The position numbers and the translations under genes were made by a program. Positions 23,484-25,021 of a DNA stretch of 64,000 bases are shown here, piece by piece. Position 1 is the stretch's first letter. Each line of letters starts with the position of its first letter. Source of the stretch: Escherichia coli (GTDB lineage: Bacteria; Pseudomonadota; Gammaproteobacteria; Enterobacterales; Enterobacteriaceae); NCBI RefSeq assembly GCF_016026235.1, contig NZ_CP065613.1; one strand, given 5' to 3'. The notes beneath the pieces are model-generated. The model was not told where the DNA came from. It ran no database searches and was given only the letters and a program-made list of their open reading frames with translations.

Positions 23484-25021
23484 ATGCAAACGAGTGATAC
23501 CCGCGCGTTACCGCTACTTTGCGCCCGCTCGGTTTATAAACAGTATTCAGGGGTCAATGTCCTGAAAGGCATCGATTTTACGTTGCATCAGGGGGAGGTC
23601 CACGCCCTGCTCGGCGGCAATGGTGCCGGTAAATCGACGTTAATGAAGATTATTGCCGGTATTACCCCTGCTGATAGCGGTACGCTGGAGATTGGGGGCA
23701 GCAACTACACCAGATTAACGCCAGTTCATGCTCATCAGCTGGGTATTTATCTCGTTCCCCAGGAACCGCTGCTTTTCCCAAGCCTGTCGATAAAAGAAAA
23801 CATCCTGTTTGGGCTGGCAAAAAAACAGCTCTCCATGCAGAAAATGAAGAACTTGCTGGCGGCGCTGGGCTGCCAGTTTGATCTGCATAGTCTGGCAGGA
23901 TCGCTGGATGTCGCCGATCGCCAAATGGTGGAAATCCTCCGCGGGCTGATGCGCGACTCGCGGATTCTGATCCTCGATGAACCTACCGCCTCGCTTACCC
24001 CTGCGGAAACCGAACGCTTGTTTAGTCGCTTGCAAGAGCTGCTTGCTACTGGCGTGGGTATTGTTTTTATCTCGCATAAGCTGCCGGAAATTCGCCAGAT
24101 TGCCGATCGAATTAGCGTGATGCGCGACGGAACCATCGCCTTAAGCGGCAAAACCAGCGAACTGTCTACCGACGACATTATTCAGGCCATCACGCCAGTG
24201 GTACGGGAAAAATCGCTCTCTGCCAGCCAAAAATTATGGCTGGAGTTACCTGGTAACCGCCCACAACATGCCGCCGGAACGCCGGTGCTGACACTGGAAA
24301 ATCTGACTGGCGAAGGTTTCAGGAATGTCAGCCTGAGACGCTCAATGCCGGAGAAATTCTGGGTCTGGCTGGGCTGGTGGGTGCCGGACGCACAGAACTG
24401 GCCGAGACGCTCTATGGTCTACGTACTTTGCGTGGCGGACGCATTATGCTGAATGATAAAGAGATCAATAGATTCTCCACTGGAGAACGTTTACTGCGCG
24501 GTCTGGTTTATCTGCCGGAAGATCGCCAGTCATCCGGACTGAATCTCGATGCTTCGCTGGCGTGGAATGTCTGCGCCCTTACTCATAACCTTCGTGGATT
24601 CTGGGCGAAAACCGCGAAAGATAATGCCACCCTGGAACGATATCGTCGGGCGCTGAATATTAAATTTAACCAACCGGAACAAGCTGCACGGACATTATCC
24701 GGTGGCAACCAGCAAAAAATCCTCATTGCCAAATGCCTGGAAGCCTCGCCGCAAGTATTGATAGTCGATGAGCCGACGCGCGGCGTGGATGTCTCGGCCC
24801 GTAATGATATCTACCAACTGTTGCGCAGCATCGCCGCACAGAATGTGGCTGTGCTGCTTATCTCCTCTGATCTGGAAGAGATCGAACTGATGGCAGATCG
24901 TGTGTATGTGATGCATCAGGGCGAAATTACCCACTCTGCACTGACCGGGCGCGATATTAATGTCGAGACTATTATGCGCGTTGCCTTCGGCGATAGTCAG
25001 CGTCAGGAGGCGTCATGCTGA
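23484..25021 (+). pseudogene. lsrA: AI-2 ABC transporter ATPase gene lsrA with frameshift between the two nucleotide-binding domains
   Basis: Two overlapping ORFs (23484..24452 and 24377..25021) in different frames; first has Walker [10 protein letters not shown], second restores [12 protein letters not shown] only in the +2 frame; 2 extra bases at about 24336..24337. Confidence 0.8.

Follow-up and report, generated by a model that had tools for sequence, protein, structure and literature searches.

A tandem GA duplication in lsrA, most likely followed by an AG duplication in lsrD, in a recent pseudogenisation of the Lsr importer of an Escherichia coli clone

The DNA analysed here, a 64,000-nucleotide stretch of an Escherichia coli genome (hereafter the window), contains a copy of lsrA, the gene for the ATP-binding subunit of the ABC importer of the quorum signal autoinducer-2 (AI-2), that cannot be read through in a single frame. 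This raises the question of whether lsrA is genuinely disrupted in the strain, and what such a disruption would mean for the import of AI-2. An earlier note, made from the sequence alone, had proposed a duplicated GA pair between the two ATPase domains of the protein. The identification of the gene held: it shares 98.2% DNA identity with K-12 b1513, lies in lsrRK/lsrACDBFG synteny, and both of its halves match the NCBIfam LsrA equivalog NF011967. The features of the region are collected in Table 1.

Table 1. Features in and around the lsr locus, with positions in the window
Feature	Position	Strand	Remarks
lsrK	20611..22203	-	AI-2 kinase; intact, 530 aa
lsrR	22282..23235	-	Repressor; full-length ORF, lineage-derived L265Q (base 22442)
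Lineage-derived G -> A	23478	+	lsrA Shine-Dalgarno region (GGGGG -> GGGAG), 6 nt upstream of ATG
lsrA pseudogene	23484..25021	+	AI-2 ABC importer ATP-binding subunit; 1538 nt here, 1536 nt in references
Truncated LsrA ORF	23484..24452	+	322 aa: 284 native (complete first ATPase domain) and 38 out-of-frame; TGA stop
GAGA, frameshifting lesion in lsrA	24335..24338	+	Tandem duplication of native GA at codon 285; from alignments with FDAARGOS_943, EC1515 and K-12
Second ATPase domain remnant	24338..25021	+	Open in the other frame; possible restarts at GTG 24377 and ATG 24446
GAGACGCTC	24404..24412	+	9-mer identical to the duplication-created sequence at 24335-24343; possible mutation template (speculative)
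lsrC	25015..26043	+	Permease; intact, 342 aa; start overlaps native lsrA stop
lsrD pseudogene	26043..27037	+	Permease; premature ORF end at 26963; 306 aa (275 native and 31 nonsense) in place of 330
AGAG, second frameshifting lesion	26867..26870	+	Tandem duplication of native AG, in lsrD
lsrB	27049..28071	+	Periplasmic AI-2 binding protein; intact, 340 aa
lsrF and lsrG	28098..29287	+	Phospho-AI-2 processing enzymes; both intact

The reading frames behaved as the earlier note had described. The ORF that begins at 23484 runs through ...GEGFRNVSL and then into nonsense, ending at a stop at 24450-24452, and the frame of the second domain stays open from 24338 until the native lsrA stop codon (25019-25021). 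Positions 24330-24340 of the window read AGCCTGAGACG. Base-by-base comparison with FDAARGOS_943 (NZ_CP065615.1), EC1515 and K-12 gave CCTGACGC in the references and CCTGAGACGC in the window, and the 1538 bases of the window gene aligned to 1536 reference bases in all 30 of the full-length lsrA matches listed. In the resulting tandem GAGA at 24335-24338, any of 24335-36, 24336-37 and 24337-38 may be taken as the inserted pair; these placements are equivalent, and the 24336..24337 of the earlier note is one of the three. Thus, lsrA is disrupted by a tandem duplication of GA to GAGA relative to every reference checked.

The allele was then set against the complete RefSeq genomes of E. coli. A megablast search with positions 23484-25021 found lsrA in 4,196 of 5,426 genomes and no lsrA match in the other 1,230. 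When the same 5,426 genomes were searched with an 81-mer centred on the insertion, none carried it (no match of at least 99%); the best match, at 96.3%, had two gaps and one mismatch. Under megablast scoring, this best match would have ranked below any insertion allele with three mismatches or fewer, and no such allele appeared. The two additional bases claimed earlier are therefore borne out both by gene length and by their absence from complete genomes, and no reference allele was found that holds the same sequence in one frame. A chance pattern is ruled out as the source of the lesion.

The consequences for the encoded protein were examined by comparing the window ORFs with a repaired LsrA. 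Removal of the two bases gave a protein of 511 aa that differed from the LsrA of FDAARGOS_943 at one residue and from that of K-12 at 8 of 511 residues. Two ABC_tran stretches were recognised in it by Pfam. Its first domain has a P-loop at residue 44 and a Walker B motif at 161; the second begins with PVLTLENL from residue 267 and has a P-loop-like GLVGAGRT at 296, a signature motif at 404 and a Walker B motif at 424. The frame is lost at codon 285 of 511. By this point about 18 residues of the second nucleotide-binding domain (NBD) have been read, and its P-loop-like motif is still 11 residues away. The earlier note was therefore right that the gene is disrupted, but its placement of the break strictly between the two ATPase domains was not upheld, because the break falls inside the second. 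As encoded, the two NBDs are not joined in one polypeptide, being parted by the shift at codon 285. The indel has a length not divisible by three and truncates a conserved domain, as is characteristic of a frameshift pseudogene.

These findings were extended with the NF011967 model, which describes the whole protein from end to end and has a cutoff of 586 bits. The N-terminal ORF scored 515.6 bits over model positions 1-285, and the 214-aa C-terminal ORF 395.3 bits over positions 299-510, both below the cutoff of 586; a 191-aa version of the C-terminal ORF scored 346.9 bits over positions 321-510. The repaired protein scored 956.9 bits over positions 1-510 of 510. Thus, the DNA is lsrA by descent, and no product that it encodes qualifies as an NF011967 member protein.

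A second 2-bp duplication, which the earlier note had overlooked, is present in lsrD. Removal of its two extra bases gave a protein of 330 aa identical to K-12 LsrD. The AG duplication was likewise found in none of the 5,426 complete E. coli genomes by 81-mer search, in which the best match to the lsrD site, at 97.5%, differed by two gaps only. Since removal of two nucleotides from each gene restores LsrA and a K-12-identical LsrD, both lesions are recent and are the sole defects in those genes. The order of the two events is suggested by an NCBI assembly, GCA_902503985.1, in which 6,969 bp equal the window apart from the absence of the lsrD duplication; its lsrA carries the lesion. Because this assembly combines a broken lsrA with an intact lsrD, the lesion in lsrA is most likely the older, that in lsrD having followed in a sublineage; this is the most parsimonious order given one assembly, and a reversion of lsrD in GCA_902503985.1 would turn it round.

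Around these two lesions the locus is well preserved. The eight lsr genes keep the order and orientation that they have in K-12, with DNA identities of 96-99%, which is the gene neighbourhood expected of an NF011967 locus. Among the 35 K-12 orthologues in the window, internal frameshifts were found only in lsrA and lsrD. One further orthologue, ydeQ, is split by about 1.3 kb of non-ydeQ sequence, which the corresponding insertion in FDAARGOS_943 suggests to be IS2. As the sole cause of the lsr lesions, general genome decay was found to have only partial support, ydeQ being the only other interruption among the 35 orthologues. A yneO-family autotransporter gene has also been disrupted, in this case by an IS110-family element; the 3' end of eamA is divergent, but its ORF remains open.

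Collectively, we favour a reading in which a genuine germ-line mutation was fixed in a natural clone, turning lsrA into a pseudogene and leaving a dead importer in which lsrD was later hit, and to which we assign a probability of about 0.9. Under this reading, the GA pair in lsrA was tandemly duplicated, the likeliest cause being replication slippage or misalignment. In each lesion a dinucleotide has gained one tandem copy, the product expected of replication slippage. The sequence GAGACGCTC that the lsrA duplication created recurs 69 nt downstream, and this copy is the only match of at least 8 nt within 1.5 kb on either strand; the chance of such a 9-mer recurrence, assessed post hoc, is about 0.01. 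An origin of the lsrA duplication by misalignment templated from this copy is speculative. For the lsrD insertion no partner match of at least 8 nt was found within 1.5 kb, so that a mutational template shared by both duplications is unsupported. Two other sources of 2-bp duplications were dropped. Restriction-site fill-in, as in an engineered strain, fits neither the native sites, which are unlike sites that leave 2-nt overhangs, nor the occurrence of the alleles in isolates that differ by SNPs; the latter also led us to discard an IS excision footprint.

The proposed consequence follows from the architecture of the transporter. The +2 frameshift ends LsrA after its first NBD and removes the second. 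An ABC importer requires two NBDs that close around ATP. With only one of them kept by LsrA, the LsrACDB importer is inferred to be dead. Once the importer was useless, a lesion of the same type, AG to AGAG, most likely followed and truncated the permease LsrD. By analogy with K-12 knockouts of the lsr transporter genes, removal of extracellular AI-2 is predicted to be slow or delayed, and production of AI-2 to be unaffected.

Why these lesions became established is a separate matter, and one alternative to simple decay concerns this cause. Loss of AI-2 import may have been positively selected in an IS-bearing clone in which an active or half-dead Lsr system was costly, so that the locus took serial hits. 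Over the 46.4 kb compared, the window and FDAARGOS_943 are separated by 6 small indels, of which four lie within the 8.7 kb of the lsr locus: 2-bp insertions in lsrA and lsrD in the window lineage, and a 1-bp deletion in lsrK and a 15-bp deletion in lsrC in that of FDAARGOS_943. The lsr locus makes up 19% of the aligned sequence, and the binomial probability that it would receive at least 4 of 6 indels is about 0.01, a statistic that is post hoc and drawn from very few events. In all, with the loss of the lsrK 3' end in FDAARGOS_943 counted in, lsr was hit at least five separate times among genomes about 0.05% apart. LsrR carries the nonsynonymous L265Q, derived relative to both FDAARGOS_943 and K-12, and a further change, G161E, was found in the assembly of ERR926423; a GA deletion is also present about 15 nt away in the lsrA of an unrelated lineage.

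Published work can be counted on the same side. Pseudogenisation of lsr has been argued to be too fast for neutrality (PMC3595036), and restoration of lsr to the lsr-negative strain 83972 lowered its fitness (Keizers et al. 2025, PMC12263705). However, purifying selection removes frameshifts elsewhere, and neutral decay likewise predicts that lesions cluster in a dead operon. The IS elements and other pseudogenes of the clone also fit general reductive evolution, and lsrK, lsrR, lsrC, lsrB, lsrF and lsrG are all still open. We therefore regard positive selection as a tentative explanation, and on balance a doubtful one. If it were true, the clone would be a natural case of AI-2 non-responders, producers without re-uptake, that arose via serial small lesions.

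Fixation of a true loss-of-function mutation, the reading favoured above, would be wrong if lsrA still worked despite its shifted frame, whether by programmed -1 frameshifting, by transcriptional slippage, or as a split ATPase whose two halves are translated separately. The downstream frame is open throughout, and a product of 191 aa is predicted from it by gene callers. A -1 or +2 shift could restore LsrA only within positions 24257-24452. Neither a slippery X XXY YYZ heptamer nor a homopolymer of six or more bases occurs in this 196-nt overlap of the two frames, and programmed frameshifting and transcriptional slippage were rejected on these grounds.

Among possible restarts for separate translation of the second half, the in-frame GTG at 24377 lies inside the P-loop-like motif of the second domain, and the in-frame ATG at 24446, which corresponds to residue 321, lies past it; the products of both starts are without the first strands and the P-loop of that domain. 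The ATG stands 4 nt upstream of the premature TGA, an arrangement that permits reinitiation. Low-level termination-reinitiation at this codon is conceivable, and might soften polarity on lsrCDBFG, but its product would be a fragment devoid of the P-loop and the first strands. In addition, a transporter still under selection would not tolerate the frameshift that lsrD carries. A functional split ATPase was rejected both for the position of the restarts and for the broken lsrD, and continued function of lsrA by any of these routes is very unlikely.

A further alternative is that the extra GA is a sequencing or assembly error confined to one assembly, and that lsrA is intact in the strain. Two 2-bp insertions lying less than 2.5 kb apart could be read in this way. 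The exact 322-aa product is also recorded as GenBank STL95479.1, named LsrA there, and the style of this accession suggests that it may derive from the NCTC 3000 project, which would imply an indel-prone long-read assembly. However, errors in long reads are mostly 1-bp indels in homopolymers, not dinucleotide duplications in non-repetitive sequence, and the other 33 K-12 orthologues in the window are without small indels.

The recurrence of both alleles decides the matter. The exact 322-aa product was found on 23 contigs, including those of the Logan assemblies of ERR926423 and ERR9828666 and of GCA_902503985.1, and the truncated LsrD is encoded on 21. Over 8.9 kb, the contig of ERR9828666 matches the window at every base. 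That of ERR926423 differs from the window by 1-2 SNPs elsewhere, and so comes from a distinct isolate. Resequencing that removed the extra GA had been named in the earlier note as evidence that would count against a disruption; at the level of assembled contigs, the GA is instead retained, and the lesion is reproduced in independent sequencing. An artefact was rejected as exceedingly improbable because independent assemblies yield the truncated LsrA on 23 contigs and the truncated LsrD on 21. Thus, the lsrA lesion is genuine, belongs to a natural clone and is not a sequencing error.

That the GA repeat is a reversible on/off switch for the importer is next to impossible: the lesion is a one-unit gain in a dinucleotide tract, and another lineage has lost GA from a nearby GAGA, but tracts of one or two units are far shorter than known contingency repeats, the two GA units here do not form the long variable tract of a contingency locus, the same allele with an identical product is found on all 23 of the 23 contigs that carry the 322-aa protein, and a second independent frameshift in lsrD would defeat such a switch.

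These results bear on the use of this genome. In the deposited record, the 322-aa fragment is labelled LsrA and the 306-aa fragment is labelled ABC transporter permease; both lsrA and lsrD warrant annotation as pseudogenes. The strain and its relatives are expected to be slow in clearing AI-2, and would therefore be unsuitable as wild-type controls in work on AI-2 quorum sensing. The locus adds one more example, at a very early stage, of E. coli keeping the production of AI-2 and repeatedly losing its uptake, and it opens no new question.

Comparison with named systems places the allele in context. K-12 has the same gene order, lsrK-lsrR and lsrA-C-D-B-F-G, and an lsrA that is 98.2% identical with 2 gap bases; relative to K-12, the GAGA of the window leaves only the first ATPase domain of LsrA, and lsrD has AGAG in place of AG. 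Among complete genomes FDAARGOS_943 is the closest, with 22 SNPs and 6 small indels separating it from the window over 46.4 kb, and its ydeQ-homologous fimbrial gene is split by IS2 where ydeQ of the window is interrupted. Unlike the window, FDAARGOS_943 has intact lsrA and lsrD. Its lsrK carries a 1-bp deletion and has lost its 3' end through a deletion that extends from hipA to lsrK, and its lsrC has a 15-bp in-frame deletion, whereas both genes are intact in the window. FDAARGOS_943 thus represents an independent route to the same loss of lsr.

The similar lesion of the unrelated lineage was found, for example, in run ERR1822268, in which GA is deleted 14-15 nt downstream in lsrA, changing CCGGAGAAATT to CCGGAAATT. 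As in the window, the frame is shifted by a 2-bp GA change where the second ATPase domain begins, and the same 191-aa downstream ORF is left; the truncated LsrA is 323 aa in ERR1822268 and 322 aa in the window. In contrast to the window, the change is a deletion and not a duplication, it stands in a different lsrA background, and lsrD shows no lesion up to the end of the locus.

No paper naming the pair of lsrA and lsrD alleles was found in a full-text literature search. The process itself is well documented: Brito, Rocha, Xavier and Gordo (2013, Genome Biol Evol) reported at least 8 independent inactivations of lsr among 44 E. coli and Shigella genomes, with small indels, mostly of 1-2 bp, behind 6 of 34 lsr pseudogenes and rapid decay once the first gene is lost (PMC3595036). 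In the same study, K-12 knockouts of lsrA, lsrC, lsrD or lsrB cleared AI-2 from the medium less efficiently (PMC3595036). The window shows the same process at its earliest stage, with two frameshifts, no deletions and no IS element in the operon. Collectively, these comparisons identify the case as an ordinary, recent and lineage-specific pseudogenisation of the Lsr importer, by a process already described for E. coli (PMC3595036).

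Besides the GA duplication in lsrA, a second lesion was found in the autoinducer-2 uptake locus of the window. A 2-bp tandem duplication in lsrD (AG to AGAG) cuts the permease LsrD to 306 aa. This duplication was found in 0 of 5,426 complete RefSeq E. coli genomes and was also absent from the contig of GCA_902503985.1, an assembly that carries the lsrA lesion. Since that contig is elsewhere identical to the window, the lsrD duplication probably arose later than the lsrA lesion.

In the repressor LsrR the window has L265Q, the derived state when compared with FDAARGOS_943 and K-12; the isolate ERR926423 has an additional G161E (position 2271 of its locus L005, corresponding to window 22754). 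In the ribosome-binding region of lsrA, 6 nt before the ATG, a G has been replaced by A, so that GGGGG reads GGGAG. K-12, EC1515 and FDAARGOS_943 (3/3) all have G at this site.

The 9-mer GAGACGCTC, the product of the GA duplication in lsrA, recurs 69 nt downstream. This repeat hints at templated misalignment as a possible origin of the duplication, and the match may be a coincidence.

Features of the window
Feature	Position	Strand
ydeQ (fimbrial adhesin gene), interrupting sequence	about 4356-5686	
yneO-like autotransporter gene	13161-19917	-
IS110-family transposase ORF	14975-16171	+
LsrR L265Q	22442	
G to A upstream of lsrA	23478	
GAGACGCTC, first copy	24335-24343	
GAGACGCTC, second copy	24404-24412	
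lsrD	26043-27037	
AGAG duplication in lsrD	26867-26870	
marB-eamA island	about 42700-48980	
GntR-family regulator ORF	48228-48926	
ydfJ	59739-61022	
Divergent stretch	61029-64000	
Serine recombinase/DNA invertase-like ORF	62359-62949	

Other genes of the window are also disrupted. The yneO-like gene, of the ECSE_1600 family, is broken up into three ORFs, with an ORF for an RNA-guided transposase lying within it. In ydeQ, ~1.3 kb of non-ydeQ sequence interrupts the gene; this insert is probably IS2, because IS2 interrupts the FDAARGOS_943 homologue at the same place. An island between marB and eamA is absent from K-12, and its FDAARGOS_943 counterpart is annotated with a 6-phospho-beta-glucosidase, a carbohydrate porin and PTS components. 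At the position of IS1 in FDAARGOS_943, the window has an intact ORF of 440 aa, and it also has an extra GntR-family regulator ORF. Collinearity with FDAARGOS_943 identifies a 427-aa ORF as ydfJ, past which the sequence departs from that genome; this divergent stretch, which contains the recombinase-like ORF, is probably a prophage edge.

FDAARGOS_943 (NZ_CP065615.1) is the nearest complete genome, with 22 SNPs in 46.4 kb. Both lsrA and lsrD are intact in this strain. Its own, independently acquired lesions lie in lsrK, which has lost 1 bp and, through a hipA-to-lsrK deletion, its 3' end, and in lsrC, where an in-frame deletion removes 15 bp.

In an unrelated E. coli lineage, lsrA has lost a GA (CCGGAGAAATT to CCGGAAATT; locus L010 of the Logan assembly of ERR1822268, 3317-3415), resulting in a truncated LsrA of 323 aa (P0015). 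This allele is listed in 64 blocks of the collection. Whereas the window carries a GA duplication, the ERR1822268 lesion is a deletion, located 14-15 nt farther downstream.
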